Assembly (NCBI GenBank): GCA_945787325.1
Contig: CALZHP010000001.1
Span: 73-64,072, forward strand
Reading direction: 5' to 3'
Source: an uncultured Desulfobulbaceae bacterium
Lineage (GTDB): Bacteria; Desulfobacterota; Desulfobulbia; Desulfobulbales; BM004
DNA length: 64,000 nt
Shown piece by piece: positions 5,695-63,913 of the stretch. Position 1 is the first letter of the stretch, and each line of letters begins with the position of its first letter. The position numbers were made by a program, and so were the translations under genes. The notes below the pieces were generated by a model. That model was not told the DNA's origin and did no database searches. It was given only the letters and a program-made list of their open reading frames with translations.

Positions 5695-5765
5695 AATTTA
5701 TATATGTGATTATAAGTTATGGCCAAAACAATAATTAAATTTGTAATCATGTATTCCATAATTAA

Positions 5766-7661: not shown

Positions 7662-7692
7662 TATTATTACAACCACTTTACGTAATTTATAA

Positions 7693-8259: not shown

Positions 8260-8297
8260 AACAGAAAGTTTAAACACATATGTTTGAATAATGAACA

Positions 8298-19675: not shown

Positions 19676-19744
19676 GACTTGACGTTGGCATCAGGTTAAT
19701 TTAAATTGTTATTGGCGAGCACTAAGGTAATAAATATAACTCTG

Positions 19745-28421: not shown

Positions 28422-28434
28422 GAAAAGACTTCAC

Positions 28435-28992: not shown

Positions 28993-29034
28993 TTAATATA
29001 ATACTCTCAAATTGTATTCTATGCTGGTTGCAGG

Positions 29035-29997: not shown

Positions 29998-30086
29998 TTA
30001 TATGTGATTGAAATTAATAACAAGAATTAATCTTATAGTACGGACCGGCTTACTTTTCAAGTTTTCAGGAAACAACAGAAAATAAT

Positions 30087-34154: not shown

Positions 34155-34176
34155 TCACGTAATTGTAACTCGATGT

Positions 34177-36091: not shown

Positions 36092-36897
36092 TGTAATCTT
36101 TTTATTGGTGGGCTTGCAGGAGGTTGCCAGTTGGATTGTTTTTCATGAAGCTTGGCATACCGGTAAAAGGTCCCTTCAAAATTACCAAGGGCTATTACAA
36201 AACCGGCCCAACCATCCAATATACCTTTTTTCATTATCCAATGTTGAATAAACGCCCATATCGCATGCATAAATGCAGTCATCATGCCTGGCTTCTTGCC
36301 TCTATCTTCAAGCTTGGTGGCACCCAAAGTAGAATATTTATTTGCTTTATGCAGGATTTCATCAAAATTCTTGAATGGAAATTGCCAGATCGCCTGTTTT
36401 AAATACCCAAGAGGTTTTGAGGTATGCATAACATAACCTTCATGAACAGGGTCTAAAGTATAAGTCATCGTACCTTTGCGAAACAGCTGTGGTTGCCTGT
36501 AATTTGGATAAAATCCGGAATGCTTTATCCATTTACCCATAAAAAAATTCTTCCTGGGGACATGGTACACATCATGACCGGTTTCGTTATTGAGTATATT
36601 TAATATTTCATCACGCACTTCGACAGTACAACGTTCATCGGAATCCAGGCTGAAAATCCACTCATGTGTACACGCATCTATCGCCTTATTCCTTAAATCG
36701 CCGTATCCATTAAAGTCTATCTGTACTATTCTGGCTCCCAATGATTCTGCAATTTCGGCAGTTTTGTCTTCACTATGGGAATCGGCTACAACAATTTCGT
36801 CGGCCCACAGTACACTGTTTATGGCTGAAGCAATTTTTTCCTCTTCATTGAAAGCAATTATATAGGCCGATATTTTACTCATTTTATTATCTCCCAA
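36088..36897 (-). CDS. family 2 glycosyltransferase (LPS core type)
   Basis: 269 aa. ISAYIIAFNEEEKI...IVVADSHSEDKT and SLDSDE motifs are present. Confidence 0.8.
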   Translation of the reverse strand: MGDNKMSKISAYIIAFNEEEKIASAINSVLWADEIVVADSHSEDKTAEIAESLGARIVQIDFNGYGDLRNKAIDACTHEWIFSLDSDERCTVEVRDEILNILNNETGHDVYHVPRKNFFMGKWIKHSGFYPNYRQPQLFRKGTMTYTLDPVHEGYVMHTSKPLGYLKQAIWQFPFKNFDEILHKANKYSTLGATKLEDRGKKPGMMTAFMHAIWAFIQHWIMKKGILDGWAGFVIALGNFEGTFYRYAKLHEKQSNWQPPASPPIKRLQ

Positions 36898-36906
36898 AAG
36901 GGATTA

Positions 36907-37488
36907 TTACTTCTCTACTAACATATCCTGTAGAATCCATTCTACAGCTTCATAAAGATCATTCGCGATGAATCGAGGCTGAATTTCCTGGCCGGGACTG
37001 ATATATTCAAGGTCACCCTTTCCGTATCCTGTTAATACAAGAATAGGCGTCGCTCCAATATTAACTGCTGCTTTCAGGTCTGACCACCTGTCCCCTACTA
37101 CATAGGATTTTGTTAGATCGATTCCAAGTTCTACAGCAGCTTTTTCAAACAGGCCTGTTTTGGGTTTTCGGCAATCACACGCAATTTTATACTCGTCTTT
37201 TTTTGCTTCCGGATGATGTGGACAGATATAAATACCATCAACATGCGCATCATCATCTGACAACAGCCGAATCATCTTATCATTTACCTCATTCAGCAAT
37301 TCTTCTGGGAAGTATCCTCTCGCCAGACCGGACTGATTTGTAATAACAACAGCTGGAATTTCATTCTGGTTGAGAAGTTGGATAGCAGAAGCAACACCAG
37401 GAAGAAGATGAAATCGGGATATATGGTTTATGTATCCCATTTGCTCATTAATTGTCCCGTCTCTGTCTAAAAATACCGCCGGTTGCAA
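36907..37488 (-). CDS. gmhB: D-glycero-beta-D-manno-heptose 1,7-bisphosphate 7-phosphatase
   Basis: 193 aa. The HAD motif is FLDRDGTIN, the Zn-finger insert is CPHHP...CDCRKP, and GDRWSD is also present. Confidence 0.9.
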   Translation of the reverse strand: MQPAVFLDRDGTINEQMGYINHISRFHLLPGVASAIQLLNQNEIPAVVITNQSGLARGYFPEELLNEVNDKMIRLLSDDDAHVDGIYICPHHPEAKKDEYKIACDCRKPKTGLFEKAAVELGIDLTKSYVVGDRWSDLKAAVNIGATPILVLTGYGKGDLEYISPGQEIQPRFIANDLYEAVEWILQDMLVEK

Positions 37489-37489
37489 T

Positions 37490-38548
37490 TTAAGCTTTCT
37501 CCTCTAATGTATTAATTATTGCAGCATAAACTTCATCAGAGCTAATATCTTCCATACAGCTGAAATCTGTCTTACAATGTGTTTTCATGCACGGGCTGCA
37601 TGGCATATCTTTCTGGATGATAACATTATTGTCGGAATATGGCCCGGTTGTCACAGAATTTGTTGACCCAAAAATAGCAATAGTTGGCGTTTTCAATGCA
37701 GCGCCAACATGCATAAGACCGGAATCGTTAGTAACAAAAACATTGCACATTTCTATGAGCGTCATAGCTTCGGCAAGTGACGTTCTACCGGTAAAATCCA
37801 TAACCTTCTGCGGAGCAGCCTCGCTTATTATATTCGCTGTATCCCTGTCAGCATTGGTACCAAAAATAAGGATCCTGGTATTGTCCGGCAGATTTTTATG
37901 TATTATCATCGCGAGTTCGGCGAATTTATTTGCTGGCCACCTCTTGGCAGGTCCGTACGCTGCGCCTGGGTTGATACCAATTAACAAATCGTCTTCATGC
38001 GGTGCAACATATTTCCGCGAACTTGTTCTGGCTTCTTCAGGGAGTTGTAAGAAAAGTTCAGTGGGTGACGGATTCAAGCCCAGATCCTGCAACAAACCCT
38101 GATAATAATGGACCTGATGAATTTTTTTTCTATCAATTGGAAGCTTCACACCATGTGTAAGAAGAAGACCTCTACCGTCAGTTGTATATCCTGCCCGGTT
38201 AGGAATCCTGGCCAACGCCGTAATAAGCGCTGCTTCAAATGCGTTCTGCAGCAGTATTGTCAAATCAAAATGTTGTTCCTTCAAGTCTTTTACGAGTTTA
38301 AGTCTGCCTTTTATACCACTGTGTTTCCCTTTTTTTTCATACAGAAATATCTTATCGACAAATGGGCTTGCCGCAAACACATCGGCAACCCACGGCAAAG
38401 CGAGAAGGGTTATCTCCGCTTCCGGAAAATTCTCACGGATTGTGCGAACTGCAGGTGTAGTCATTATACCATCACCAATCCAGTTAGTGGATCTTATGAG
38501 AATTTTTTTGGGAGAAATTGAAAGTATAGAGTGTTTCATTAGTGTCAT
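37490..38548 (-). CDS. waaF: ADP-heptose:LPS heptosyltransferase II (GT9)
   Basis: 352 aa. The N-terminus ILIRSTNWIGDGIMTTPA is WaaF-like. The C-terminal motif TNDSGLMHVGAALKTPTIAIFGST is present. Confidence 0.8.
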   Translation of the reverse strand: MTLMKHSILSISPKKILIRSTNWIGDGIMTTPAVRTIRENFPEAEITLLALPWVADVFAASPFVDKIFLYEKKGKHSGIKGRLKLVKDLKEQHFDLTILLQNAFEAALITALARIPNRAGYTTDGRGLLLTHGVKLPIDRKKIHQVHYYQGLLQDLGLNPSPTELFLQLPEEARTSSRKYVAPHEDDLLIGINPGAAYGPAKRWPANKFAELAMIIHKNLPDNTRILIFGTNADRDTANIISEAAPQKVMDFTGRTSLAEAMTLIEMCNVFVTNDSGLMHVGAALKTPTIAIFGSTNSVTTGPYSDNNVIIQKDMPCSPCMKTHCKTDFSCMEDISSDEVYAAIINTLEEKA

Positions 38549-38637: not shown

Positions 38638-40392
38638 TTAGATAGTCTGAGCCTCAACAAGTTGTTCAAGATTACTTTTGGCAAACTCTATTGATGGGTC
38701 AAGAGAAAGTGCCAGCTCAAAATACTTAATGGCCTCATCGTTCTTATTAAGTTTTCTATAATTAACACCAAGGTTAGCATAATCTATGGCAGAGGCTGGG
38801 TTAAGTTCAACGGTTTTACTGAAATGTGAAACAGCCGTTTCATATTCACCAAGCTTGAAGTGGCAGAATCCTAGCATATTATGAAGATCTGGGCGAGTGT
38901 TGTCCATAGCCGTTCCTTTTTCCAGAACAGTAATTGCTTCACTATATTGTTCCAGATCCTTAAGGCAATTACCCATGTAGGAGTAAATATAGGGCATGTC
39001 CTCTTCTTCAGGATTGAGCTGAAGTGTTTTTTTGAAATGCGCCATCGCTTCATCATGCATTCCTAAAGCAAGCTTATTGCGTCCCAGGTAGAATTCAATA
39101 TAATATGAATTAGGTTGAATCTTCTGAAGATTTAACAAGTGTTCATTGGATTCGACGGGATCTTTAACAAGTTCTGCCAAAAGTTTAGCCGCGAAAAGCC
39201 CCACGCTTTTACTTCTAGATCGCTCTCTGAAATGAGCCCCAGGTATAATTGTGTATATTGTTGGTATCCGCAGCTTTTCATGCATGGTATTCATGATATA
39301 TACATCCATATCAATTTTCTTAAGTGCTGCAAGACATCTATCAATCTCTGTTTTCATATTGTCATCGGTAAGATCATCCATATCCTGAAGATCTATAGTT
39401 TTGCCGGGATTAGTCAAGTACTCAACCTCATCCATACTCAACGGCTTAGGAAGCCCACTGGCCACATAATTAGCCTTGGTATTGAAGTCGCCGGCTAATT
39501 GCGCTACCTCAGTATAAGCCCTGATAAGTGATTTTTCAGGGTTGGGAGTAGTTCCTGCCGTGTAAACAATCTCACTAGTCATCGGAAAAGTGGATCTGTC
39601 GATCGCAAGAGCACCTATAGTCGGAATACCAGTGTCCAAAGAAAAATCGTTCAGGTAGACTTCAATGTTATGTTTCCTGAATTTGTTAATCAGTTCTTTG
39701 GAGACAGGATCATTAGCGGAATCAAGATTTATCAGCGGTGATTTTATTTCATCATGGCTAATTACAGCGCATACGTGACGCTCAACAATTTCACAAATAC
39801 CCTGACTTATAGCTTCTTCGTATGTATTGCCTGCGGAAGGACCATTAAATTCATTAATCGCATAGAACCATGAGAAAGGAATCAGTAACTCCTCTTCTTT
39901 GTTTAAATGAGTAACCCAGGTCCATTGAATTGGAATGTCGGCCAGCATTTTTTCAAGTGTTTCTTCATCAGTTGTCTCATCATGCACTGACTGCAGCATC
40001 TTTTTAAGAGGAAGAAGCGGATAACCCTGTGCTTTGAGATTGGGATATGTATCAGTGATAAAATTATCAGGATTTTTTATAAAACTGAAGAAACTGTAAC
40101 GTTCGGCAAGCTCCATACATGCACTTGCACGTGACTGTTCCGGTGTGCTTCCTTTTCCCATCTGTTTTTTATTGCCGATTGTCTCACGAGCGTCTTTTCC
40201 GGTAACACTGAAATAAACAGGTATATCAAGTCGTCCGTTATCAATGCGTCGCACCTCTTTGAGAATGTCAAGATCTACTTCCTTAAGCATCTTCATGAAA
40301 CGATCAACAGTTTCTACTGGCGACATTACCTTATCCTGATCGTATGTATAATGCTTAAAACAATCTTTTAATCTGATGGGCCTCTTTTCCAT
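38638..40392 (-). CDS. YcaO-domain protein fused to C-terminal TPR repeats
   Basis: 584 aa. YcaO motifs are RIDNGRLDIPVYFSV and SRASACMELAERYS. From about aa 430 there are 4-5 TPR-like repeats, for example YIEFYLGRNKLALGMHDEAMAHFKKTLQLNP and LGFCHFKLGEYETAVSHFSKTVELNP. Confidence 0.85.
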   Translation of the reverse strand: MEKRPIRLKDCFKHYTYDQDKVMSPVETVDRFMKMLKEVDLDILKEVRRIDNGRLDIPVYFSVTGKDARETIGNKKQMGKGSTPEQSRASACMELAERYSFFSFIKNPDNFITDTYPNLKAQGYPLLPLKKMLQSVHDETTDEETLEKMLADIPIQWTWVTHLNKEEELLIPFSWFYAINEFNGPSAGNTYEEAISQGICEIVERHVCAVISHDEIKSPLINLDSANDPVSKELINKFRKHNIEVYLNDFSLDTGIPTIGALAIDRSTFPMTSEIVYTAGTTPNPEKSLIRAYTEVAQLAGDFNTKANYVASGLPKPLSMDEVEYLTNPGKTIDLQDMDDLTDDNMKTEIDRCLAALKKIDMDVYIMNTMHEKLRIPTIYTIIPGAHFRERSRSKSVGLFAAKLLAELVKDPVESNEHLLNLQKIQPNSYYIEFYLGRNKLALGMHDEAMAHFKKTLQLNPEEEDMPYIYSYMGNCLKDLEQYSEAITVLEKGTAMDNTRPDLHNMLGFCHFKLGEYETAVSHFSKTVELNPASAIDYANLGVNYRKLNKNDEAIKYFELALSLDPSIEFAKSNLEQLVEAQTI

Positions 40393-52894: not shown

Positions 52895-53974
52895 TCAGAT
52901 GTTGATTATGGAATTTCTACCTCCACATAAGTCATCAACAAAGTTTTCGTTTTTCGGATCCGCGATCCACTTATCATTTACCACGTATTTATAGGCATAA
53001 GAACCTGGTTTCAATGGTATTGTTTTACACCACATTACCTTTCCACCGGAATTTATCAGGTTGAGTGGTTCTGGAACCCAGTTATTGAAATCCCCCGCGA
53101 TACACACTTCAGCGTTTTCAGGTGCATCCATTGAAAACAAAACTTTCCCATGCTCCATGTCCTCCTGGCGCATATGATTTTGCAGGAGAAATTCTATAAT
53201 AGAAGTGTCAACCTCTATCTCAGATTCAGGACTCATTGTTTCTCTGGTGAGTTCAGTAAAATCTCGAAAAGCTATACAATCCTTATTGTGCTCGACTAAT
53301 GGAATCCCAAGGCCGGCCGCCTCCCTCAATGCAGTACAAGTATTAATAACGGTTCGAAAACAATTATCGGGATAAGTAGTCTTGAGAAATTCTGCCATTT
53401 CCCTGCAGAACTTAGTCCTGCGGTCAATATTATTTGCAAGGATTTTGGCGGAAAGATGGTGACCTGTTTTTTTCGCCAATACTCGAATAGTTTCAAGTTG
53501 TTTTTCAACACCATCAATAGAAAAATAACTTGGGTCTACGGGAATAATAACCTCTGAAGCTGCCATCAGACCGTTAATGGTAATAAGTCCTACACTTGGT
53601 GGGCAATCCAATATTAGATAATCGTACTTTGATTGAATCCCTTCAGTGCATTTTGCCAGTTTAAGTTCCCTGCCCTGCTCACCTGACATCACTTGTTCAA
53701 AGGCGCTGAGAACAACGTCACTGCAAACTATATCAAGGTTGTCCCTTACACTGATCACTGCTTCCTCAATTGTGGATTCACCGATCAGTACTTCATAAAT
53801 GCTTTTTTCAACTGTAACAGGTGCAACACCAAGACCCATAGCCGAGTGTCCCTGAGGGTCCAGATCAATGAGTAGCACTTTTCTACCCTTAGCCGCAAGA
53901 GAACTTGACAGGTTTATTGCTGTTATGGTTTTACCACACCCACCCTTCTGATTCACGAGAGCTATCCTTCTCAT
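52895..53974 (-). CDS. ParA/MinD-family ATPase fused to C-terminal CBM48 / AMPK-beta-type glycogen-binding domain
   Basis: 359 aa. The deviant Walker A is VNQKGGCGKTIT, with LLIDLDPQGH and ILDCPP also present. About aa 275-359 (nt 52898..53152) read VLFSMDAPENAEVCIAGDFNNWVPEPLNL...KPGSYAYKYVVNDKWIADP, the classic AMPK-beta/CBM48 pattern. The Shine-Dalgarno is AAGGAGAAGGGG. Confidence 0.85.
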   Translation of the reverse strand: MRRIALVNQKGGCGKTITAINLSSSLAAKGRKVLLIDLDPQGHSAMGLGVAPVTVEKSIYEVLIGESTIEEAVISVRDNLDIVCSDVVLSAFEQVMSGEQGRELKLAKCTEGIQSKYDYLILDCPPSVGLITINGLMAASEVIIPVDPSYFSIDGVEKQLETIRVLAKKTGHHLSAKILANNIDRRTKFCREMAEFLKTTYPDNCFRTVINTCTALREAAGLGIPLVEHNKDCIAFRDFTELTRETMSPESEIEVDTSIIEFLLQNHMRQEDMEHGKVLFSMDAPENAEVCIAGDFNNWVPEPLNLINSGGKVMWCKTIPLKPGSYAYKYVVNDKWIADPKNENFVDDLCGGRNSIINI

Positions 53975-54281: not shown

Positions 54282-57200
54282 CTACTTTTCAGCTTCTACC
54301 AATACTATGCTACCAGTCTCATCATGTTTAGTCCAAATCTTGTCATTATCAAATCCGGCACTTAGCATAATTTCCTGCATCTCATTTTCTGTACGGTACA
54401 CCAGCCACCAGTCAAGTAACCATTCCATTTTTGGTATGGATTGATGATCTGAGCGGTAATTGCTTGTCATCATGTGCATCCCAGGCCGACCACCTTGATG
54501 TACTGCCTCTATAATCGCTGTTGCAGCATCTTTCTCAAGGTATTCGATCAGTCCCATACATATGCAGACATCTACTTCTTCTGCTACTTCTTTAATGCGT
54601 GCAACACCTTGAGGAGAAATCAAATTATGTTTTTCGGTAACCAATGTTGCCCTTGGATCTACAAGGTTTTCCTTAACAAATCGAATGGCACGTTCATCCA
54701 AATCAAATCCAGTAATTGAAAAAGTAATGTCCGGCGCAGAATTTTCAATGACTGTTCTCTCAATTGCCATTGGACCGAAGCCGAGGTCCAACAACCTGAT
54801 ATGCTTCATACCCTTTTCTTCCATTATCGACCTGACTCTTTCAGCGACCCAGTAAGATCGCTGACGAACAGCTTCACTACCTATATTCTCGATAAAATTG
54901 CGGTCAAAATGGTATCCGATTCCTGTCGAAAAAAGTTGTTTATAAAACATCATATTCATCAAAAGATGATCACCTGGATACCCATACGGCTTTTCTAGCG
55001 TTCGTCGGAACACTTTTGAATCATGAAGATAATGTTTTATTTTCTCGTACATATAATTTCGTTTGTTCTTTAATTCTTCATCTGAAAAATGTTTTTCTAA
55101 TTCACTTAAAGATTCTACTGTTGTATCAAGTACAGAATTAAATATTTTGAAATGTTCTTCTGTATCAGGATGCTCAGGATCATTTTTGAAAAGTTCAATA
55201 CCAGCATCAAGTTTTCCAAAAAAGTTTTCCGCTATTTCATTAAATCTCTTTTCTGGCGATTTTGATAAAGATATATTTAAATTGTGAGAGTTATCTACTA
55301 GAGGATGTTGATCTATTCCCGGTTCATCAACTGCTACTGCCATTGCCTGAACGGTTTTTCCATTCTTTTCATTATAAAAAACTGTACTCAATAGATTAAC
55401 GTCGTTGCCGTCAAAATCACCTTTAAAAAGGTACCAGGGTCCACCAAGATGTGTTTTAAATTTAGGAACATGCCTTTTTAATGAATTTGACTTCTTACCT
55501 GCCTCTAAAAGAGACCAGACCCTGGTAGCAGTCTTGTCAAAAGGTTCCGAGGTTTTCGCTACAAGCTCACGTGCAAGGTGATAACCGTCTTCACCCAATA
55601 ATCCACGCCATGTTTCAGCATCGTGATTCTGTACAGTTTCGAAATCAAGTCCTATTGATGACGGACCAACCATGGCAATCGATTTTTCCGCATCATCAGC
55701 CAGACTCATACCTGTACTGTTCAGCACTTGTGCGCTAGGCTCGCTGTTTATGTGTAGATCAGGTTTTCCATCCGGTTGATGACGAATTGCGATATCGGTC
55801 GGATTTAGGTCCAGGTTATGTTGATCCCTGGCATATTGCACAGTGGCACGGCGCGTAGCAAGAAGGTTGGAAATTGCCGTAGTACGCCTTGATGCAGCAA
55901 TTTCCTTTTGAAAATACTCGAGTTCGTCACTTCTAATTTCATCATTATCAGTCAAGGATTCAACTTCTGTATGTTCGATAGCAGCCAGGCCAAATGATTC
56001 ACTTTCAAGAAAAGACTGTAGATCAGTTACAACACGTGACATTGGAATCTGAGGGTAAGGTTTCGCAACACTTATTCCCGCATTAGGAGCCTGCAGAATC
56101 AGTCCTTTTATTGTTTCCAGGATCTGTCCGTCTTCGTCGTATAGATTGATATTAGCACTGTAACGTTCAGCAGTTCGTTTTTGACCAATAACGTGACAAA
56201 TAATTCTGGAACCTGGTTTCATATTGCGGTATATACGAAGTTCATCCATTTCCACAGGGAGATACCCTGTAGGCATAAGAAGAGCACCGCTTTGCAGAGC
56301 AGAATCTCTTGCTGCAGGAGAGACCGTAAGAAGAGATTTGTTGGTTACGTTGCCGAAATACTTTTCATCTTCAGGCACCTTAATCTCTGTAATACTCTCA
56401 CTCGATGTTTCGAGTTTATAGATCGCACTTATCCTCCGCATAAACTTACCCTGAAAAAGAGGGGTCGGACTGAAATCCTCCGGGCTGACAGGTAGTTTTT
56501 CAGGCAAATTCGGACAGGAAGGAATTTGGGATACATGAGTGCTATCCGCACCGAAAATACAATCAGCTCGAAAATGATTTTCTCTAAAACCATCACCTTC
56601 AGAACGAATTGCCATTTTCACCCTTATCATTCCACTCGTTTGCGGATCAGCAACAGCCATCACACGCATTATAATTTTACTGTCAGCCGGGACTATCAAA
56701 GGACGCTTGAAACGGATACTTTGCAACACAGGATAATCATTTCTCCCGGTACATGCCTGAGCCGCTTCTACCATGGCTTCAATTGCCATTACTCCTGGAA
56801 ACAAAGGAGTGCCGTCAAAAACATGTTCTGAAATATATTTGTCTCTATCATGAGAAATTAATGTGTCTGCAACCAATTCGCCGGACGGGACCCAACGCTG
56901 TATCTTTTCAAGAAATCTACCTGCTGGTTTCTGAATTGGTGCAAAAAGAGTGGCCTCAAGCTCTGGGGTCATGCGTCCTATGATCAGGAAAGTGGATCCC
57001 AAGCAAGGCTGCCGGGTAAGCTTTATGTAGGAATCTATGCCTTCTTTGTTGCTGATAGGAGTGATTCCCTGCATTGCAAGAGATTCTACAGCACCCAGCC
57101 TTTTGCCAAGACCGGTTTCAGACCAGACGGAATATCCCAATGATAAACAATGTATATGGGGATAATAATGTAATACGCTTTGAACAGCGCCATTCAACCA

Positions 57201-60200
57201 GGCATTTGCATAGGTATAATCACTCTGGCCGATCATTCCGGTTGAACCAAGAATGGAGGAAATTACATGCAGTGCTTTTAATTTATCTAAGGAAACAGCA
57301 GATAAAATATTATAGAGGCCACGGGTTTTGACGTGAATATTAGCTAAACAGGATTCCAGGTCCATTTCTCGGAAGAGTTTTAATTGACTCAAACCGGCAC
57401 CATGCAGGATCCCTGTAATTTTACCCATACTCTGACTCACTTCAAGTACTGTTTTTTGTACCGCTTGCTGATCTGTTACATCACACTGAAAATACCTGTA
57501 GTGAATGCCTTCATTGTCATATCGCTGCAAATTTTGAAAGATTTCATTTTTCCGTTTTGATGATGTTTCAGCATCTACAAGGGGGGATGAGCCGAGTATT
57601 GCGAGTTTAACACCTGTACTACGGGATAATTCACGGGCAAGTTCAAAAGTAATTCCTTTTGCTCCTCCTGTTACAAGAAATGTGTCTGTATCGTTTAAAT
57701 GCAAAACTTCCTTCTCGTTGAACTCAGAAGGCTGCGCTACCATGGCCATGCGCTGGCCATCTTCAATAAAGTTGTATACCAGGCGTCCTGTTGCGACCTC
57801 CATTTCCTGCATGGCTGTTTCAGCCCACTGTTCAGCGGACCAGGAGTCTGGCAAAGAGACCCATTTAAAGTTTGCAGAAGGATATTCAAGGCACATTGAT
57901 TTCATAAAACCTGTTCCAGCCTCAAGGTCTATATCTGAGTTGTAATCATCAGATACAGGTCGCAATACAAGGCTGCGAAAACCGGACCAGCCAGATTCTA
58001 AAGTTTTATCCAATAGTTTATAACAATTGAAAAGATTCGAAATGAGTCCGTCTATACGAACGTCAAATTCCTCTGATGTGCAAGAGAAGAAAGCATTTTG
58101 ATTTTCCGGTAAGATAATAATCATGCCAATGAGATTATCTGGAAGTTGGTTTACTTCAAAAATAGATGAAAAATCGTAAAATACAGTTGATAGCCCTTTC
58201 CTGTTTAGTATATTTGAAAGGCTCTGATGCCTGTGAGATTCTGATTCACCGACCAGTAATACGGTACCTGCTGAAGGTAGAGGCAGGCTTTTCTCATGTG
58301 CAATTGGATAGAAATATGAGTTCATCTGGAAGTTACGAATATTATCGGGAATTATATTCTCCAGACTTATATAGTCAGTTCCGACTTCTTCTTTTTCAAT
58401 GCTCTTTTTTCTATCAATTTTTTTATTCTGAGCTTCGAGCTGCATTGCTTCAACCATCTCTGACAAAGGTGAATTAGCATATATCGAAGGATCATCTGCA
58501 AAATTTCCATTAAATTCTCGGGCAAGTACAATAGCAAGCTCACCAACTTTGATAGAGTCAAGATTAAGGTCATCACGAAGTTTCATTTCAGGCTGTATCG
58601 AATCAGGTGGAAATCCTGTGCGATCAGCTATACTTTTGATAGCAAATGTAAGTATATCACCCCTCAATGCAGGTTCGACTGGTTGCAATAATTCCTGTTC
58701 AGAAGCTACTTCATCAGATTCTGCAGCAGTATCGTCATGCTGTATATCTGGTTTAATAAATTCGGTAGGCAAGCTGCTGGGAAAGTTCTGATAATCCAGA
58801 GCAATATAATCTTTGAGAAATTGTTGGCGTCTGTTGAAATACGATTCAAAGAGTTCAGGGTTAATCCCTTCAGGTATTAATTTTTCTTCCAGCATGTTGA
58901 CAGGTTGAATTTTTTCAAGATGGCTGATATCAACTTGATTCTCACAAGGATTAGTAATAAATTGCGGATCATATGCTTCGACTGAGAACGGACGATGAAA
59001 TCTATGTTCAAAAAAATTATTTAAGTTGAGAGGAAACCCAAGAACATATGCCCTACCCAGTAATTCGTTCAATGGTTTTGAAGTGTCTGAATCGTTAGCA
59101 TCGGTGGGCATACAGGGACTGTTGATATTACCAAGGATATCTTTGACCAAATTGCTGAGGACCTGCCCCGGCCCTATTTCAATCCATAGGTCTGGTGAGT
59201 GAGCGGTTACTTCTTCAATAGCGTCTGTAAATCGTACAGGGTTTTGAATTTGTTGCCCAAGTAGTTTTTTTATGTCTTCCGAATTGGAAACTTCCATTCC
59301 GGTTGAAGTGGAAATTACCGTCCCATTTAAAGTTTGAAAATCTATGTCCCTCAAGCTTTCTAAAAAACTTTCAGAGGCAGGTGCTACAATATTTGAGTGG
59401 AAAGCATGTGAAACAGGAAGAATTGCACATTGAATATTTTGCTTTTTACACTCACCAGCCAAGGCCTCTATTGCTGCTGATGTTCCAGAAACAACCGTTT
59501 GTTTTAAGGAATTATAGTTAGAAATAATCGCCTTACCCATAAAAGGTTCAATAAGTATTTCAATATTTTTTGGGGTATCCGCAATTGCCAGCATGCCGCC
59601 GGGATCTTGTATATTCAGTGACGACATTGCATTACCACGTAGTGATGCAATTCTCACAGCAGTTTGTTCGTCATACACACCCATGGTATGAAATGCCGCA
59701 ATTTCACCAAGACTGTGTCCTACAGCGATATCGGGTTTAAGTCCCAAAAACTCCAGTACCTGAAGTATAGCAATGGATGTAAGGATAATTGCCGGTTGTG
59801 ATACTCGAGTATCTCGCAGGTTTGCACCGGCCTGATGGATGGTCTGTTCATTATGCGCAAATTGATCAATGAAAATAGAATCCATTAACCCTTCAGGCAT
59901 AACTGTAAAAACTGCATCTTCGCTGCTTTCATATAGTTCTTGAACAAAAGGAAATCTTCGTACTAAATCTTCACCCATATTGAATTTCTGACTTCCCTGT
60001 CCCGGAAAGAGTGCAACAGACTTAGGATTTTTTCTTGCTATCCCAGCAAAAATGCCTGCCGACTGGTTTTCAAGCTGGTTTATTTTCACACCTGAAACTA
60101 ATTTCAAGTGAATCAATTGGAGAGATTCTTCCAAGTCCCAAGGAGATTCGCAGACTATTGCCAGCCGGAGCTTACCTCCCATTGGTTCTTTGGTTAATGC

Positions 60201-61778
60201 AGCGGAAAGGTCAATTAATTCTGCACGGCAAATACGGCCAGCAAATTTTAATAGTTTTTCCACAGTATTCTGAAGTTCGGAATAATTTTCTGCAGCAATT
60301 AAAATTAACTCACTTTTTTGATAACTTTCCAGGATGGCAACATCCACTTGTGACGGTTTAGTGTCAGGATCAACTTCTTCAAGAGTTACATGGGAGTTTG
60401 CTCCTCCAAATCCCATAGAACTAATTGAGGACCGTCGAGGTCCATTATTTGCCTGCCATTCTCTTCCTGAAGCAACTGGCCGAAGAGTCCCAAGAGGTCT
60501 GCCGAACTGAGGATTGGGGCTTATACAGTTCATGGTAGGAGGTAATATTTTTCTTTTTAAAGCCATAATTGTTTTGGCCATTCCTGCAGCACCAGCAGCG
60601 GCTTTGCAGTGACCTATATTGCTTTTGATACTTCCAATCCAGCAAGGTCCATGGTCTGGTGAATTGTCTATAAGATCTTTTAAAGCAATAATTTCAACAT
60701 TGTCTCCCACAGGTGTACCGGTCCCGTGTCCTTCAAAAAGATCAACGGATGAGATTGGATACCCTGCCAAGTCATATGCTTTTTTTAATGCCCTCTTCTG
60801 CCCTTCTGGCTCAGGAGATGTTATTCCTCCATTGCCGTCAGATGAATATCCCCAACCTTTTATGAGGGCATGGATTCTAAGACCGGATTTACGAGCAAAT
60901 TCTTCTTTTACAAGGACAAAAATACCGCAACCTTCTCCTGCAAGCATACCTTCCGCCTGCTCATCATATGGCTTAATGTCTTCTTTTGCTAAGGCTCTAG
61001 TTTTGGCAAATCCAATAATTTCGAATGGATCAAGACTTACATCAACACCACCCGCCAAGGCAATTTCCATATCATCGTTGCGCAAGGCATTACATGCATG
61101 AGCTACAGACAAAAGGGATGAAGAACAAGCACCGTCAACCGTATAGCCGCCAGCTCCAAAATTAAAATAATTGCAGATCCGACCTGCGATAGTATTTGAC
61201 ATGTTACCCGCAAGACTGTCTTCATTCAATTCAGGTAACGCAGACTCATAGGAATACTGAAAAGCCATATCCAACTGATCAATTTGTTGCTTGTCGAAAT
61301 TGTTGTGCTCAAGAACTCTTCGAATAGATCGTGAAACATATGGCCAACGGAATTTTAGTGTATGACTTCGGGAAAACTCTCCTGCCAGAGTGTTACCAAG
61401 TATCAGCCCAATTTTGGCTCGATCAAGTTTGTCGAGATCAATCCCTGCATCAGAAATTGCCTTATCTGCAGTCCATAACGCAAGCCAATGAGCCATATCG
61501 GAAGCTTTAACAACAGTCGGGGGAATACGAAACTGGAGTGGATCAAATGCCCAATCGGTAATGACTGCCATCTGATCGCAATAGGTTTTTCCAGGAGTTG
61601 AGGGGTCAGAATCGAAATAGTCATTTCTTGGCAGTCTTTCGTCAGGCATCTTGCGAAAATAACGTCTTCCTGCCAATACGTTCTGCCAGAGTTCTTCTGG
61701 TGAATGTGCACCGGGATATACACACCCCATGCCAATTACAGCAATAGCAGAACTACTATCCGATCTGGCTTTACTCAT
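54282..61778 (-). CDS. single-module (iterative-type) type I polyketide synthase: KS-AT-ACP-KR-DH-PPTase-like-methyltransferase
   Basis: 2498 aa with a strong Shine-Dalgarno (AAAAAGGGGGGAGAAT before the ATG).
- KS: DGAC218SSS, EGH351GTGT and SNIGH390.
- AT: FPGQGSQ, GHS689LGE and HAFHS (malonyl-type).
- ACP: LNLDS1075IKVGE.
- KR: VTGGAKGIT and SDYTYANAW.
- DH: H1652VFDGTPLFPG and D1825SALQ.
- Sfp-like PPTase motifs: DGKPDL, IGLDFE and VWSLLEAGKK.
- C-terminal class I SAM methyltransferase: IRLLDLGFGPMAIE, ITGFDLDERAI and VCICMGLIEYL. Confidence 0.92.
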   Translation of the reverse strand: MSKARSDSSSAIAVIGMGCVYPGAHSPEELWQNVLAGRRYFRKMPDERLPRNDYFDSDPSTPGKTYCDQMAVITDWAFDPLQFRIPPTVVKASDMAHWLALWTADKAISDAGIDLDKLDRAKIGLILGNTLAGEFSRSHTLKFRWPYVSRSIRRVLEHNNFDKQQIDQLDMAFQYSYESALPELNEDSLAGNMSNTIAGRICNYFNFGAGGYTVDGACSSSLLSVAHACNALRNDDMEIALAGGVDVSLDPFEIIGFAKTRALAKEDIKPYDEQAEGMLAGEGCGIFVLVKEEFARKSGLRIHALIKGWGYSSDGNGGITSPEPEGQKRALKKAYDLAGYPISSVDLFEGHGTGTPVGDNVEIIALKDLIDNSPDHGPCWIGSIKSNIGHCKAAAGAAGMAKTIMALKRKILPPTMNCISPNPQFGRPLGTLRPVASGREWQANNGPRRSSISSMGFGGANSHVTLEEVDPDTKPSQVDVAILESYQKSELILIAAENYSELQNTVEKLLKFAGRICRAELIDLSAALTKEPMGGKLRLAIVCESPWDLEESLQLIHLKLVSGVKINQLENQSAGIFAGIARKNPKSVALFPGQGSQKFNMGEDLVRRFPFVQELYESSEDAVFTVMPEGLMDSIFIDQFAHNEQTIHQAGANLRDTRVSQPAIILTSIAILQVLEFLGLKPDIAVGHSLGEIAAFHTMGVYDEQTAVRIASLRGNAMSSLNIQDPGGMLAIADTPKNIEILIEPFMGKAIISNYNSLKQTVVSGTSAAIEALAGECKKQNIQCAILPVSHAFHSNIVAPASESFLESLRDIDFQTLNGTVISTSTGMEVSNSEDIKKLLGQQIQNPVRFTDAIEEVTAHSPDLWIEIGPGQVLSNLVKDILGNINSPCMPTDANDSDTSKPLNELLGRAYVLGFPLNLNNFFEHRFHRPFSVEAYDPQFITNPCENQVDISHLEKIQPVNMLEEKLIPEGINPELFESYFNRRQQFLKDYIALDYQNFPSSLPTEFIKPDIQHDDTAAESDEVASEQELLQPVEPALRGDILTFAIKSIADRTGFPPDSIQPEMKLRDDLNLDSIKVGELAIVLAREFNGNFADDPSIYANSPLSEMVEAMQLEAQNKKIDRKKSIEKEEVGTDYISLENIIPDNIRNFQMNSYFYPIAHEKSLPLPSAGTVLLVGESESHRHQSLSNILNRKGLSTVFYDFSSIFEVNQLPDNLIGMIIILPENQNAFFSCTSEEFDVRIDGLISNLFNCYKLLDKTLESGWSGFRSLVLRPVSDDYNSDIDLEAGTGFMKSMCLEYPSANFKWVSLPDSWSAEQWAETAMQEMEVATGRLVYNFIEDGQRMAMVAQPSEFNEKEVLHLNDTDTFLVTGGAKGITFELARELSRSTGVKLAILGSSPLVDAETSSKRKNEIFQNLQRYDNEGIHYRYFQCDVTDQQAVQKTVLEVSQSMGKITGILHGAGLSQLKLFREMDLESCLANIHVKTRGLYNILSAVSLDKLKALHVISSILGSTGMIGQSDYTYANAWLNGAVQSVLHYYPHIHCLSLGYSVWSETGLGKRLGAVESLAMQGITPISNKEGIDSYIKLTRQPCLGSTFLIIGRMTPELEATLFAPIQKPAGRFLEKIQRWVPSGELVADTLISHDRDKYISEHVFDGTPLFPGVMAIEAMVEAAQACTGRNDYPVLQSIRFKRPLIVPADSKIIMRVMAVADPQTSGMIRVKMAIRSEGDGFRENHFRADCIFGADSTHVSQIPSCPNLPEKLPVSPEDFSPTPLFQGKFMRRISAIYKLETSSESITEIKVPEDEKYFGNVTNKSLLTVSPAARDSALQSGALLMPTGYLPVEMDELRIYRNMKPGSRIICHVIGQKRTAERYSANINLYDEDGQILETIKGLILQAPNAGISVAKPYPQIPMSRVVTDLQSFLESESFGLAAIEHTEVESLTDNDEIRSDELEYFQKEIAASRRTTAISNLLATRRATVQYARDQHNLDLNPTDIAIRHQPDGKPDLHINSEPSAQVLNSTGMSLADDAEKSIAMVGPSSIGLDFETVQNHDAETWRGLLGEDGYHLARELVAKTSEPFDKTATRVWSLLEAGKKSNSLKRHVPKFKTHLGGPWYLFKGDFDGNDVNLLSTVFYNEKNGKTVQAMAVAVDEPGIDQHPLVDNSHNLNISLSKSPEKRFNEIAENFFGKLDAGIELFKNDPEHPDTEEHFKIFNSVLDTTVESLSELEKHFSDEELKNKRNYMYEKIKHYLHDSKVFRRTLEKPYGYPGDHLLMNMMFYKQLFSTGIGYHFDRNFIENIGSEAVRQRSYWVAERVRSIMEEKGMKHIRLLDLGFGPMAIERTVIENSAPDITFSITGFDLDERAIRFVKENLVDPRATLVTEKHNLISPQGVARIKEVAEEVDVCICMGLIEYLEKDAATAIIEAVHQGGRPGMHMMTSNYRSDHQSIPKMEWLLDWWLVYRTENEMQEIMLSAGFDNDKIWTKHDETGSIVLVEAEK
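54285..55256 (-). other. C-terminal class I SAM-dependent methyltransferase-like domain (aa ~2175-2498)
   Basis: Motif I is LLDLGFGP, with an acidic post-I residue in GFDLDE and a motif II/III-like segment VCICMGLIEYLEKD. A helical region containing EKPYGYPGDHLLMNMMFY precedes it. Confidence 0.65.
55329..56006 (-). other. Sfp-type 4'-phosphopantetheinyl transferase-like domain (aa ~1925-2150)
   Basis: The motif order is RR...LLATRRA, then DGKPDL, then SIGLDFE (Asp2045 codon at 55644..55646), then TRVWSLLEAGKK. This parallels the Sfp/ACPS motifs GKP, (V/I)G(V/I)D.E and W..KEA..K. The match is degenerate, so an HMM check is needed. Confidence 0.6.
56079..56906 (-). other. PKS dehydratase (PS-DH double hotdog) domain (aa ~1625-1900)
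   Basis: The HxxxGxxxxP motif is HVFDGTPLFPG, with the His1652 codon at 56823..56825. A downstream DSALQ (DxxxQ) motif is present. Confidence 0.8.
56979..57686 (-). other. PKS ketoreductase catalytic subdomain (aa ~1365-1600)
   Basis: The Rossmann motif is TGGAKGIT, with the Thr1370 codon at 57669..57671. The S...Y..AN catalytic motif is SSILGSTGMIGQSDYTYANAW. Confidence 0.85.
58443..58673 (-). other. PKS acyl carrier protein domain (aa ~1036-1112)
   Basis: In LNLDSIKV, the Ser1075 codon is at 58554..58556 (checked in frame). Confidence 0.8.
59139..60020 (-). other. PKS acyltransferase domain (aa ~587-880), malonyl-type
   Basis: The Ser of GHSLGE is encoded at 59712..59714 (checked in frame). 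FPGQGSQ and HAFHS motifs are present. Confidence 0.88.
60381..61751 (-). other. PKS ketosynthase domain (aa ~10-466)
   Basis: The active-site Cys218 codon is at 61125..61127 (checked in frame). The His motifs are EGHGTGT and KSNIGH. Confidence 0.9.
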
Positions 61779-62257
61779 ATTCTCCCCCCTTTTTCAGTTT
61801 TTGATAACGAATTAATTTTATAAGTATTTAAGACAACAGGTTTAATTGCTGTTGGTGAATATTTGTTAAATTCAAAACAAATCTGAATATGAAGCCAGAA
61901 AAGGCAATTAAAGGCAGATTGACTGGTAGGAATGTTAGGTAAGCCTTCTTTGAAGTGAAGAAAATTTCTTTCTAAGCAGGTTTGTAATTTGTATGTCGAA
62001 ATAATTTGGATAAATCTAAATCCAAATACTGTTTTTAATACAAATTTTTTTTCTAGATGATTATTAGCAGGCATCAAAACAATTATGCATGCGTATTTCT
62101 TGTTTGGCTTGAACGCATAACTACCTTTGGTTACGCAAAAAATATATAATAATGCTCGCTGCCAATGATAATGCAAAAGGGATTTCTGGCGGATATATGG
62201 TTCTTCTTCCACATCTTTAAGAAAAGAAATGATTGAATTCACTGTATTAATTTCCAT
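61775..62257 (-). CDS. hypothetical 160-codon ORF in AT-rich leader, stop overlaps PKS start (ATGA)
   Basis: This is the only long open frame in a stretch of roughly 20-38% GC per 60-nt line, counted by hand, where stop codons should be frequent. It lies about 40 nt downstream of the predicted sigma54 promoter. There is no Shine-Dalgarno before either in-frame ATG (62257 or 62074), and I recognise no family. Confidence 0.3.
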   Translation of the reverse strand: MEINTVNSIISFLKDVEEEPYIRQKSLLHYHWQRALLYIFCVTKGSYAFKPNKKYACIIVLMPANNHLEKKFVLKTVFGFRFIQIISTYKLQTCLERNFLHFKEGLPNIPTSQSAFNCLFWLHIQICFEFNKYSPTAIKPVVLNTYKINSLSKTEKGGRI

Positions 62258-62307: not shown

Positions 62308-62323
62308 AGCAGTTTACGTGCCA
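62308..62323 (-). promoter_or_regulatory. sigma54 (-24/-12) promoter oriented toward the AT-rich ORF and the PKS gene
   Basis: The minus strand reads TGGCACGTAAACTGCT. Against the consensus TGGCACG-N4-TTGCW, the GG and GC are at exact spacing. The only deviation is C for T at the first base of the -12 element. Confidence 0.65.
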
Positions 62324-62470: not shown

Positions 62471-63913
62471 CTAGGGTTTGAAATTATCAGAAGACCAACC
62501 AAGTCTTGAGACACCGTGTTTTTTCAGGAGAGTGTATAATCTTGTACGGCTTAAACCAGATACCTCGCAGGCCTGCTTCAGATCTCCTTTAGTAAATGCT
62601 ACTAAGTCCTGAAAATATTTTTTTTCAGCATCTGCCAACACGGTTTCTTTGAATGGTCGATATTTCAATGGATCATTAGGTGGTAAATTTTCTTTCATTA
62701 TAATGCCAAAATCATGTGTATCGTCCTGTATATCAGCAAGGGGCCATAAAGAATGGATTCGAACCTGGTCAGGTAAATGTTTAGGTACCAGAATCGGTTC
62801 ATGTAACGCTTTGCTGATTGCACCCTCGAGGGCCTTAATCAGCTCCCGTACATTCCCAGGCCAGTTATAAGCCTGCAGGGCATCAAAAAAATCAACTGAA
62901 AATCCTTTTGTTTCAATACCGTATTTTTCACAAATTCTGGTAGTGTAGTAAACAGCCAGTTCTTTTATATCTCGAGCATGTTCTCTAAGCGGTGGCAAAT
63001 CAAGAGTAATGGATCGTAAACGATAAAGAAGGTCATGCCTGAAAAGCCCTTTTGTGACAAGTTTTTCAGGATCTTTGTTTGTTGCAGCAATAAGCCTAAA
63101 GTTACTTTCGATCTCCCGGTTTCCTCCTACAGGACGAAAGCGGCCTTCCTGAAGGACCCGTAAAAATATTTTCTGAAGATTTAAGCTCAGATCGCCGACC
63201 TCATCCAGAAACAAGGTACCACCATTCGCCTGTTTAATCAGCCCATCTGTTGACTTTTCTGCACCGGTGAATGAGCCCTTTTCATATCCAAACAGGGAAC
63301 TTTGCACCAATGTTTCCGGAAGAGCGGCACAATCTACAACCACAAAATTATGATGCGACCGTAAGCTGTTAAAATGGATTGACCGTGCAAATAATTCCTT
63401 TCCAGTACCTGTCTCACCGGTAATCATAACACTTGCATCTCCACCGGCAGCCTGTGCTACGGTATCCAGGCAAGTTCTAACCTGTCGGCTTCTTCCGACA
63501 ATTCCACTAGTATCCAATGCGACAGTTGGTTGTTGAATATTCTTCTTACTCTCTCGATAAGCAAGAACACGATTGAGAGAGAGCCTCACTCTTTTAGAAT
63601 GCAAAGGTTTTTGTAGATAGTCCCATGCTCCATTCTTCACTGCAAGTTCGGCGCCATCAGGTGTACCAACCCCAGTAATAATTATAACCTCTGGGGATGA
63701 TTTAGTATCACGGATAACCGGCAATGCCTGTAGGCCATCTCCATCCGGCAGCATTACATCCAGTAAGACAACATCAAATTCTTCATTTTTCGCAATGTCC
63801 AGACCATTGTCGAGTGTCAATGCTGTAGAAACAAGATAGCCCAACTTTTCCAGCAACCTTGTCAGAAATCCGCATACTCCTGGATCATCATCTATGATAA
63901 GAACTTTTGACAC
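62471..63913 (-). CDS. sigma54-dependent response regulator (NtrC family: REC - AAA+ - Fis-type HTH)
   Basis: 480 aa with a GTG start. The receiver has VLIIDDDPGV and VVLLDVMLPDGDG. The AAA+ domain has GETGTGKE, the sigma54-contact loop GSFTGA (GAFTGA variant) and LDEVGDL. The C-terminal HTH is ACEVSGLSRTRLYTLLKKHGV. Confidence 0.92.
   Translation of the reverse strand: MSKVLIIDDDPGVCGFLTRLLEKLGYLVSTALTLDNGLDIAKNEEFDVVLLDVMLPDGDGLQALPVIRDTKSSPEVIIITGVGTPDGAELAVKNGAWDYLQKPLHSKRVRLSLNRVLAYRESKKNIQQPTVALDTSGIVGRSRQVRTCLDTVAQAAGGDASVMITGETGTGKELFARSIHFNSLRSHHNFVVVDCAALPETLVQSSLFGYEKGSFTGAEKSTDGLIKQANGGTLFLDEVGDLSLNLQKIFLRVLQEGRFRPVGGNREIESNFRLIAATNKDPEKLVTKGLFRHDLLYRLRSITLDLPPLREHARDIKELAVYYTTRICEKYGIETKGFSVDFFDALQAYNWPGNVRELIKALEGAISKALHEPILVPKHLPDQVRIHSLWPLADIQDDTHDFGIIMKENLPPNDPLKYRPFKETVLADAEKKYFQDLVAFTKGDLKQACEVSGLSRTRLYTLLKKHGVSRLGWSSDNFKP

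Follow-up and report, generated by a model that had tools for sequence, protein, structure and literature searches.

A PKSE-like polyketide synthase with a predicted PhcB-family methyltransferase fused to its C-terminus

The DNA analysed here, 64,000 nucleotides of contig CALZHP010000001.1 from an uncultured Desulfobulbaceae bacterium (this whole 64-kb stretch is called the window), carries on its minus strand one gene for a polyketide synthase (PKS) of 2498 amino acids. The protein has the domain order of the enediyne PKSs (PKSEs), that is ketosynthase (KS), acyltransferase (AT), acyl carrier protein (ACP), ketoreductase (KR), dehydratase (DH) and 4'-phosphopantetheinyl transferase (PPTase), and continues into a class I methyltransferase (MT) domain dependent on S-adenosylmethionine (SAM). 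To our knowledge, nearly all PKSE-type synthases described so far come from actinomycetes, where they catalyse the opening step in the making of enediyne antitumour antibiotics. The gene and its domains are the following.

54282..61778, minus strand: whole PKS gene, 2498 aa, KS-AT-ACP-KR-DH-PPTase-MT (list of open reading frames (ORFs) and translation; full-length homologues at 40-72% identity)
60525..61748, minus strand: KS domain, aa 11-418, catalytic C218/H351/H390 (Pfam PF00109, PF02801)
59136..60011, minus strand: AT domain, aa 590-881, malonyl type, with GHS689LGE, R714 and HAFH794 (PF00698, E 3e-36)
58449..58634, minus strand: single ACP domain, aa 1049-1110, phosphopantetheine site S1075 in LDS (PF00550, sub-threshold, E 0.0036)
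57177..57683, minus strand: KR domain, aa 1366-1534, with TGGAKGIT, K1484, S1508, Y1521 and N1525 (PF08659, E 3e-28)
56088..56885, minus strand: PKS-type DH domain, aa 1632-1897, with H1652xxxGxxxxP and D1825xxxQ (PF21089 (PKS_DH_N), PF14765 (PS-DH))
55323..55991, minus strand: predicted Sfp-type PPTase domain, ~aa 1930-2152 (profile match to AcpS, AlphaFold2 model match to Sfp)
55257..55322, minus strand: disordered linker between PPTase and MT, ~aa 2153-2174 (predicted local distance difference test score (pLDDT) <50 at model residues 240-258, ~aa 2154-2172)
54285..55256, minus strand: predicted PhcB-family class I SAM MT domain, type A, aa 2175-2498, with KPYGYPGD (2263-2270), LDLG2333FG2335P, D2359 in GFDLD2359E and MEWLLDWWLVYRTE (2451-2464) (hhalign, profile search of the PDB, Foldseek)

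Domains of the synthase and kinship with enediyne PKSs

Pfam recognises the KS with E-values of 1e-54 and 1e-35, and its triad C218/H351/H390 is invariant in 59 sequences. The AT, which also matches the NCBIfam FabD model (E 2.5e-55), keeps its motif residues unchanged both in a set of 34 full-length homologues and in the 59 sequences, and the KR motif residues are conserved in the same two sets. Residues L1071, D1074 and S1075 of the ACP are invariant in the 34 homologues, and the domain aligns with the ACP of a Streptomyces PKSE. As for the DH, H1652 and D1825 are invariant in the 34 homologues and at least 90% conserved in the wider set of 59. Over all domains, the quoted catalytic motifs, including G687-H-S689 and Y1521, are invariant or nearly so in the 34 full-length homologues, and every motif quoted in an earlier sequence-only reading of this DNA lies at the residue assigned to it, from C218 through D2359. 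No enoyl reductase (ER) domain is found in the ORF by Pfam, and no other PKS gene is present in the window. Judged by these motifs, the gene product is very probably a self-priming iterative type I PKS of the enediyne-PKSE architectural type, with active domains.

The PPTase region is less readily recognised. Neither Pfam nor NCBIfam gives an ACPS-family match on the 2498-aa protein (the PF01648 model stays below threshold), and a PDB search with the C-terminus as a single sequence returned only noise, so that profiles were needed. A profile built from the window sequence and 15 fragments or C-termini obtained by exhaustive search matches AcpS of B. subtilis (1F80, E 5.5e-7). The AlphaFold2 model of aa 1915-2498 (mean pLDDT 85) displays two domains parted by a disordered linker, and Foldseek aligns this model with Sfp (4MRT, E 8.5e-8; 1QR0, E 1.1e-7; probability 1.00), with TM-scores to the Sfp structures of 0.57-0.59 on the target. 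The motifs G2004-K-P2006, G2043-L-D2045-F-E2047 and W2088-x3-E2092-x3-K2096 are invariant in the 34 homologues, the 45 residues from G2043 to W2088 agree with the motif distance of Sfp-type enzymes, and the relatives P0073 and P0075 carry PF01648. From the pseudo-dimeric fold of the model together with the motifs, we conclude that the Sfp-type PPTase domain is real. Pfam, profiles and AlphaFold2/Foldseek thus bear out, domain by domain, the layout that the sequence-only reading had put forward, namely a PKSE with built-in PPTase and an extra C-terminal MT. For the C-terminal 570 aa the outcome is divided by method: the ACPS models of Pfam and NCBIfam gave no signal, whereas the AcpS profile match, the Sfp fold and the MT profile were positive.

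As PKSE references we used Streptomyces type I PKSs retrieved by a plasmid search with the DH-PPTase region, the solved DynE8 and CalE8 chains being absent among the best 60 PDB matches. Two of these references, both on Streptomyces plasmids (L087:5606-11473 and L089:4552-10506), are the only ones verified as linked to an enediyne cassette. In S. clavuligerus, genes for DUF1702, VCBS/UnbV and UnbU proteins, the PKS and, immediately 3', an acyl-CoA thioesterase make up the canonical minimal enediyne cassette; in Streptomyces sp. NBC_00209, genes for a DUF1702 protein, a VCBS protein and an "enediyne biosynthesis protein" lie 5' of the PKS, and the acyl-CoA thioesterase gene is found ~7 kb downstream. 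The window enzyme is colinear with the NBC_00209 PKSE, with 39% identity across the 946 KS-AT residues aligned and 27% in the part from ACP to PPTase. With SgcE, CalE8 and DynE8 it has in common the KS-AT-ACP-KR-DH-PPTase order, the single ACP and the lack of an ER. It differs from them in being ~540 residues longer (linker plus PhcB-family MT), in having no E3/E4/E5 genes nearby and, for its subtype, no adjoining E10 gene, and in its host, which is an anaerobic Desulfobulbales-like bacterium and not an actinomycete; an anaerobic host had been suspected beforehand, and the Desulfobulbales-like placement fits it.

The relationship was examined in a neighbour-joining tree of the KS-AT region (928 columns, 59 sequences, 100 bootstraps). 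The two cassette-linked PKSEs and four metagenomic proteins of ~1950 aa form a clade with 100% support. The window enzyme is placed outside it, among the 41 sequences of a sister clade supported at 89%, and the node uniting both groups reaches 100%. Proteins with a fused MT (~2450-2500 aa) and others lacking it (~2100 aa) are interspersed in this sister clade, which indicates that the MT has been gained or lost several times. The proposed kinship with enediyne PKSEs consequently stands as far as architecture goes, since the domain order with a single ACP and an integrated PPTase is present, but the enzyme is placed beside the cassette-linked clade and not inside it. On this comparison "PKSE-like" is accurate for the window enzyme, and the name "enediyne PKS" is not supported.

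A second comparison is offered by PfaA (TIGR02813). The KS-AT part of the window enzyme is colinear with this model from residue 8 (E 7.7e-187), and its KR and DH come after the carrier domain, as in PfaA; however, the total of 623 bits is far under the cutoff of 1010 and, unlike PfaA, the window enzyme has one ACP in place of a tandem array and an integrated PPTase. Genes of the size of pfaB, pfaC or pfaD are absent from the 64-kb window, where the sole other ORF >700 aa encodes glutamate synthase and those of 500-670 aa carry housekeeping or signalling annotations.

The C-terminal methyltransferase and the distribution of the fusion

As a single sequence the MT remains below the Pfam threshold (E ~0.004), and its relatives exceed the Pfam thresholds. 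A profile of the family retrieves the class I methyltransferase 3OCJ, an uncharacterised Bordetella protein (E 2e-11), which is also the best structural match of the MT model in Foldseek. A tblastn search of plasmids detected a 468-aa MT encoded on a Paraburkholderia graminis plasmid (L086:4437-5843, E 5e-11). Its gene comes first in an operon and is followed by genes for a histidine kinase and two response regulators, which is the order of phcBSRQ in Ralstonia, where PhcB is the methyltransferase of the phc quorum-sensing system that makes methyl 3-hydroxymyristate or 3-hydroxypalmitate (PMC8578825). Comparison of the window MT with the P. graminis protein by hhalign gives a probability of 100% and an E-value of 5.6e-40 over 263 columns, the reference being here a PhcB orthologue by gene order and not the characterised Ralstonia protein. 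The match spans motifs outside the SAM-binding core (KPxGYxGD, CxGLFDYL and MEx..W.L.YR.E), at an identity of only ~21-24%. In addition, IMG applies the name "3-hydroxypalmitic acid methyl ester biosynthesis protein", that of the PhcB orthologue, to stand-alone relatives of the MT and to a contig-edge fragment of 343 aa whose 90%-identity cluster also includes a fusion of 2480 aa.

The PhcB-like MT and the window MT share KPxGYxGD, GCGP/GFGP, the acidic beta-2 residue and the C-terminal MEx..W.L.YR.E. PhcB is a free-standing protein of 467-468 aa with its own ~190-aa N-terminal region and draws on fatty-acid metabolism, whereas the window MT is fused to the synthase that presumably makes its substrate. 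Homology over the full length of the domain leads us to assign the window MT to the PhcB family. Its nearest homologue is 66% identical over the C-terminal 584 aa of the protein, a level which argues for purifying selection.

No PKSE-like enzyme with a fused terminal MT was known to the sequence-only reading, and the single match given by a word-indexed search with the C-terminal 596 aa pointed to rarity; exhaustive and full-length searches overturned this. Of the best 120 homologues, about 45 carry the fusion over their full length, and the PPTase-MT pair is contiguous in at least 18 clusters at 50% identity. Among the GTDB species representatives, the full pair occurs in seven loci, all in metagenome-assembled genomes (MAGs): two of Nitrospirota, two of Victivallales, one of Verrucomicrobiales and two unclassified. 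GTDB loci of Pedosphaera and Desulfobulbaceae are matched by the MT portion only, inside other PKS architectures, and a further full-length fusion, P0016, was found separately from the GTDB loci in a Bacteroidetes MAG. The fusion is therefore widespread in uncultured bacteria. All the homologues found are uncharacterised, in agreement with the supposition that no enzyme of this architecture had yet been characterised, and searches for a PKSE-MT fusion, for PKSE-like enzymes and for hglE-KS clusters with MTs gave no specific prior description in the searchable, partial literature. The labels that databases attach to the fusion proteins, "enediyne polyketide synthase" (the name used in IMG) and "SDR family oxidoreductase", are both misleading.

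Two types of MT can be distinguished. Type A, to which the window domain belongs, has the motifs KPxGYPGDH and MEWLLDWWLVYRTE (71% support); type B has GYAGDF and MEWFMDFHLGYR (100% support). Type A is closer than type B in motif to the PhcB-like MT (W-W-L-V-Y-R-T-E in the window, W-Y-L-I-Y-R-N-E in the PhcB-like MT). The two types differ in what follows the synthase gene: a hotdog thioesterase of the E10 type lies directly 3' of the PKS gene in all seven loci with a type-B domain, and beside none of the nine PKS genes with type A only. The loci of this sample are not phylogenetically independent, and no exception to the rule occurs among them. The thioesterases of the type-B loci are 30-39% identical to Streptomyces E10, a feature in which these relatives resemble the PKSEs, and they are all that the type-B relatives keep of the enediyne cassette. 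The description of the synthase as lacking a thioesterase thus applies to the type-A subtype of the window and fails for type B. P0016 (L004 10001-18768; 2778 aa) carries a type-A followed by a type-B domain in tandem, with an E10-type thioesterase gene next to it; since both types occur in one protein, they probably methylate different positions.

Surroundings of the gene in the window and in its relatives

The window covers 54 kb on one side of the PKS gene and 2.2 kb upstream of it. No match in these 64 kb was obtained by tblastn with E3, E4, E5 and E10 of S. clavuligerus, nor with two E10-type thioesterases from homologue loci. Together with the ORF survey, this agrees with what the sequence-only reading had noted, that neither a thioesterase nor a warhead cassette nor pfaBCD is in view. 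Likewise, tblastn detected none of E3/E4/E5/E10 in the surroundings, up to 10 kb, of eight further type-A homologues, and pfaBCD is not found beside these relatives. The E4-like tblastn matches obtained in L003 and L011 were judged to reflect generic FG-GAP/VCBS repeat similarity in unrelated operons. The L003 operon (5196-9001) specifies a multi-haem cytochrome; its genes for an FG-GAP/UnbV_ASPIC protein and an HZS-alpha-like protein lie 1-5 kb 5' of a type-B PKS gene. A 160-aa ORF of the window (61775-62257, minus strand), which overlaps the PKS start codon (ATGA), was considered as the missing thioesterase and rejected: it has no Pfam match and an odd composition, is missing upstream of the homologue with 72% identity, and is probably not a gene.

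The neighbours of the PKS gene encode a sigma-54 response regulator, a ParA-like ATPase with a glycogen-binding module and glutamate synthase, and neither a transporter nor an envelope-lipid gene is among them; two-component proteins, a lipopolysaccharide (LPS) core cluster and housekeeping genes make up further parts of the window. The eight other type-A loci have no neighbouring biosynthetic gene in common, so that the synthase is a solitary gene. That the PKS gene of the window stands alone, on the chromosome, is well supported. Upstream of it lie two features.

62471..63913, minus strand: NtrC-type response regulator/sigma-54 activator, directly upstream (Pfam Response_reg, Sigma54_activat and AAA lid)
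62308..62323, minus strand: tentative candidate sigma-54 -24/-12 element TGGCACGTAAACTGCT (one mismatch to TGGCAC-N5-TTGCW)

The candidate element is one of only four such sites on both strands of the 64 kb. It sits in the 690-bp non-coding gap between the sigma-54 activator gene and the PKS gene, and it is not conserved in the homologue locus L001. As a promoter it would imply a leader of ~500 nt; an Rfam scan of the gap gave no match, and the sequence upstream of the PKS gene shows no conservation with L001 beyond the ribosome-binding region. The NtrC-type protein is a possible regulator of the PKS gene. Among the eight type-A loci with gene tables, four have a two-component gene immediately beside the PKS gene: the sigma-54 response regulator in the window, a response regulator and an HWE kinase in L002, a hybrid kinase in L092, encoded 57 bp upstream in the same orientation, and an HWE kinase in L093. 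This adjacency weakly echoes that of phcB and phcS.

At the two loci of MT-less clade members that were examined, no stand-alone MT gene lies beside the synthase, and other tailoring genes are present. One of these members, from Desulfuromonas (L090 3626-18096), has on its flanks genes for an MMPL transporter, a LolA-like (TP_0789-like) protein, a flavodoxin-like reductase, a GMC oxidoreductase and an FAD enzyme resembling amine oxidases and phytoene desaturases. A similar phytoene-desaturase-like FAD enzyme is encoded directly 3' of the type-A gene of L095 (8115-9656). These neighbours suggest that some relatives export a polyene lipid or tailor it by oxidation. A different arrangement is found on a plasmid of Gloeothece verrucosa PCC 7822 (L088 3585-18026), where a PKSE-like synthase is split into a KS-AT and an ACP-KR-DH-PPTase protein, the second one being fused to an E10-type thioesterase; three tryptophan-7-halogenase genes follow, which suggests that this cultured cyanobacterium has a pathway to a halogenated polyene. 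Finally, the conjugative IncFII plasmid of an Enterobacter ludwigii gull isolate (L085 1-12783) carries a multi-protein PKS cluster, the last PKS protein of which ends in an MT distantly related to that of the window (22.7% identity, E 1e-9).

Elsewhere in the window four regions deserve mention. The gene at 52895-53974 (minus strand) encodes a ParA/MinD-type P-loop ATPase (AAA_31, CbiA) with a C-terminal AMPK1_CBM/CBM48 glycogen-binding module, an unusual pairing that might reflect a partition-type ATPase tied to glycogen granules. A YcaO-domain protein with a C-terminal TPR region is encoded at 38638-40392 (minus strand), its best NCBIfam model being the YcaO type of McrA-glycine thioamidation, below cutoff. 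Two adjoining genes for short type IIA topoisomerase subunits (17675-21571, minus strand) specify a ParC-like protein of 666 aa, which is of the PRK09631 type above cutoff and has its best named homologues in Desulfobulbales/Thermodesulfobacteriota MAGs at 69-72% identity, and a GyrB/ParE-like protein of 608 aa; the host was placed by means of these homologues. The LPS inner-core/O-antigen cluster at 26949-38548 (minus strand), unrelated to the PKS, comprises HldE, two GT9 heptosyltransferases, GT2 and GT4 glycosyltransferases, a Wzy_C O-antigen ligase, a HAD phosphatase and two class I methyltransferases.

Predicted product and its alternatives

PKSEs form 3-hydroxy-4,6,8,10,12,14-hexadecahexaenoyl-S-PKSE, from which a thioesterase yields pentadecaheptaene by hydrolysis, decarboxylation and dehydration (PMC9992847). 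An example of what a cassette-free PKSE-like enzyme does is given by RerA/RerB of Rhodococcus erythropolis PR4, likewise a PKSE-like, non-enediyne KS-AT-ACP-KR-DH synthase with its own PPTase, whose products in E. coli are free hepta- to nonaenes with conjugated double bonds (PMC11563203). Set side by side with the window enzyme by their descriptions, RerA/RerB differ in that RerA has two ACPs, the PPTase is located on the second protein together with a thioesterase, and there is no MT.

By analogy with these systems, the window gene would work in the following way. The built-in Sfp-type domain would convert the single ACP into its holo form, the malonyl-specific AT would supply malonyl units, and the KS, KR and DH, iterating without an ER, would build a conjugated polyene chain that ends, as in PKSEs, as a 3-hydroxy-polyenoyl thioester on the ACP. 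The chain would be hydrolysed by an enzyme encoded elsewhere or without assistance, a step placed outside the locus because the type-A subtype never has an adjoining PKSE thioesterase. After hydrolysis the tethered MT, acting as PhcB does, would methylate the carboxyl oxygen and so give a methyl 3-hydroxy-polyenoate. PhcB converts a 3-hydroxy acyl chain to its methyl ester, and this is the same functional group that ends PKSE-type chains. Esterification would block the decarboxylation and dehydration which lead to the hydrocarbon heptaene and would leave a neutral, diffusible lipid. On balance, then, we favour a polyene synthase that stands alone, primes itself and has its 3-hydroxy-polyenoyl product methylated, with the methyl ester as the likeliest outcome. 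The parts of this proposal differ in strength. A product of polyene type is probable from the domain content; the methyl ester of a 3-hydroxy acid, taken specifically, is put forward tentatively, as somewhat less than an even prospect. That the product serves as a signal or protective lipid is speculative; it would not be an enediyne precursor. The guess of a methyl ester or signalling lipid made by the sequence-only reading has nonetheless gained support, from the PhcB family of the MT and from the 3-hydroxy-polyenoyl thioester at which PKSEs end (PMC9992847).

Several observations weigh against esterification at the carboxyl group. Cleavage of a thioester is beyond the reach of a SAM methyltransferase, so that a separate hydrolytic step is required, and a hydrolase was found beside the type-A genes in none of nine loci. 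Type B, always accompanied by the E10-type thioesterase, is arguably the better candidate for a carboxyl MT, and the tandem of A and B with a thioesterase in P0016 probably means that the methylation sites differ. No member of the clade and no fused MT is characterised, the product, chain length and methylation site being deduced by homology, and identity of the MT to the PhcB-like protein is low, as given above; PhcB itself could act on either the free acid or the acyl-ACP. Only 2.2 kb upstream of the gene are in view. With regard to signalling, the adjacency of two-component genes comes from a small sample, with partners of differing type, in lineages rich in such genes.

The same chemistry could also provide a structural or protective envelope lipid or a pigment, for instance an antioxidant or a membrane polyene, and not a diffusible signal. 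Polyenes often act as protectants (PMC11563203), the MT-less Desulfuromonas member is set amid an MMPL transporter, a LolA-like protein and FAD oxidoreductases, L095 has its phytoene-desaturase-like FAD oxidase directly 3', and half of the type-A loci have no adjoining signalling gene. We nevertheless consider this use of the product mildly unlikely, given that the sole characterised relative of the MT makes a quorum-sensing signal, that a sensor kinase or response regulator is directly adjacent in the other four of the eight type-A loci, and that the window gene itself has no transporter or envelope-lipid neighbour.

Alternatively, the MT could act on a carrier-bound species, by O-methylation of the 3-hydroxyl or an enol, by C-methylation, or by BioC-like methylation of the free carboxyl of malonyl-ACP, which would supply a starter unit in methyl-ester form. 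Such activities would lead to a methoxy polyene, a branched polyene or an alpha,omega-diacid monoester, and release would be independent of the MT. The tethering of the MT beside an ACP-modifying domain, as in embedded PKS MT domains, speaks for this, as do the adjoining thioesterase that always goes with type B and never with type A, and the two methylation sites implied by the tandem types of P0016. Moreover, nine of 30 family members show weak BioC matches (best E 2.4e-6), and the PKS C- and O-MTs CurJ and AprA MT2 are among the structural matches. However, the likeness to BioC, CurJ and AprA is that of a generic Rossmann core (E 1e-6 to 1e-7), to be set against the E-value of 5.6e-40 and the family motifs that link the MT with PhcB, and it is type A whose motif lies nearer the PhcB-like sequence. 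In-line PKS C-MTs, besides, are usually placed between DH and KR and not behind a PPTase. On this evidence carrier-bound methylation is fairly unlikely, but the thioester problem and the lack of a nearby thioesterase make methylation at another position, or of the BioC type, a serious rival to the methyl ester.

A degenerate, inactive MT, which would reduce the enzyme to a plain PKSE-like polyene synthase, is very unlikely. It could be argued from the sub-threshold Pfam score (E ~0.004) and from motif I, which reads GFGP where most relatives have GCGP; but the F occupies the variable x of GxG, and all family-invariant residues are kept, that is K2263, P2264, G2266, Y2267, D2270, G2333, G2335, E2340, D2359, G2409, E2452 and W2453. 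The model of the domain is confident (block pLDDT mostly 83-97, with a dip to ~65 near model residues 341-360), and purifying selection on the C-terminal 584 aa, as judged from the identity to the nearest homologue, speaks in the same direction.

Most improbable of all is a true enediyne or other cassette-dependent PKSE with E3/E4/E5/E10 elsewhere in the genome and the MT as a tailoring add-on: the IMG family name, the identity of architecture with PKSEs through the PPTase and the short upstream view would allow it, but no such gene lies in the window or within up to 10 kb of the eight type-A homologues, the enzyme falls outside the fully supported cassette-linked Streptomyces clade, E3-E4-E5 and the PKS are contiguous in both cassettes inspected (E10 being adjacent or ~7 kb off), and type-B relatives retain the E10-type thioesterase alone.

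The PKSE-like self-priming synthase with its fused MT is thus a variant of a known scaffold for which a specific product can be predicted. It belongs to a well-populated sister clade of the PKSEs in uncultured, mostly anaerobic or sediment lineages (Desulfobulbales-like bacteria, Nitrospirota, Victivallales, Verrucomicrobiota and Bacteroidota), in which the self-priming scaffold stands by itself and has become joined to PhcB-family MTs more than once, a use of this scaffold outside enediyne pathways. Polyene methyl esters are what the fusion predicts, given that PKSE chains finish as a 3-hydroxy acyl thioester and that PhcB turns 3-hydroxy acyl chains into esters. The correlation between MT subtype and E10-type thioesterase (seven of seven loci against none of nine) offers a handle on how release and methylation are coupled, and heterologous expression should be easy, as there is a single gene of 7.5 kb and no partner PPTase has to be supplied. 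It is conceivable, though decidedly doubtful, that the type-A fusion is a one-protein synthase of a new class of diffusible signals, methyl 3-hydroxy-polyenoates, by which anaerobic sediment bacteria (Desulfobulbales, Nitrospirota and others) would signal from cell to cell and which they would sense through the adjoining two-component genes. If true, such signals would be the polyketide counterpart of Ralstonia phc quorum sensing, built on an enediyne-type PKS chassis.

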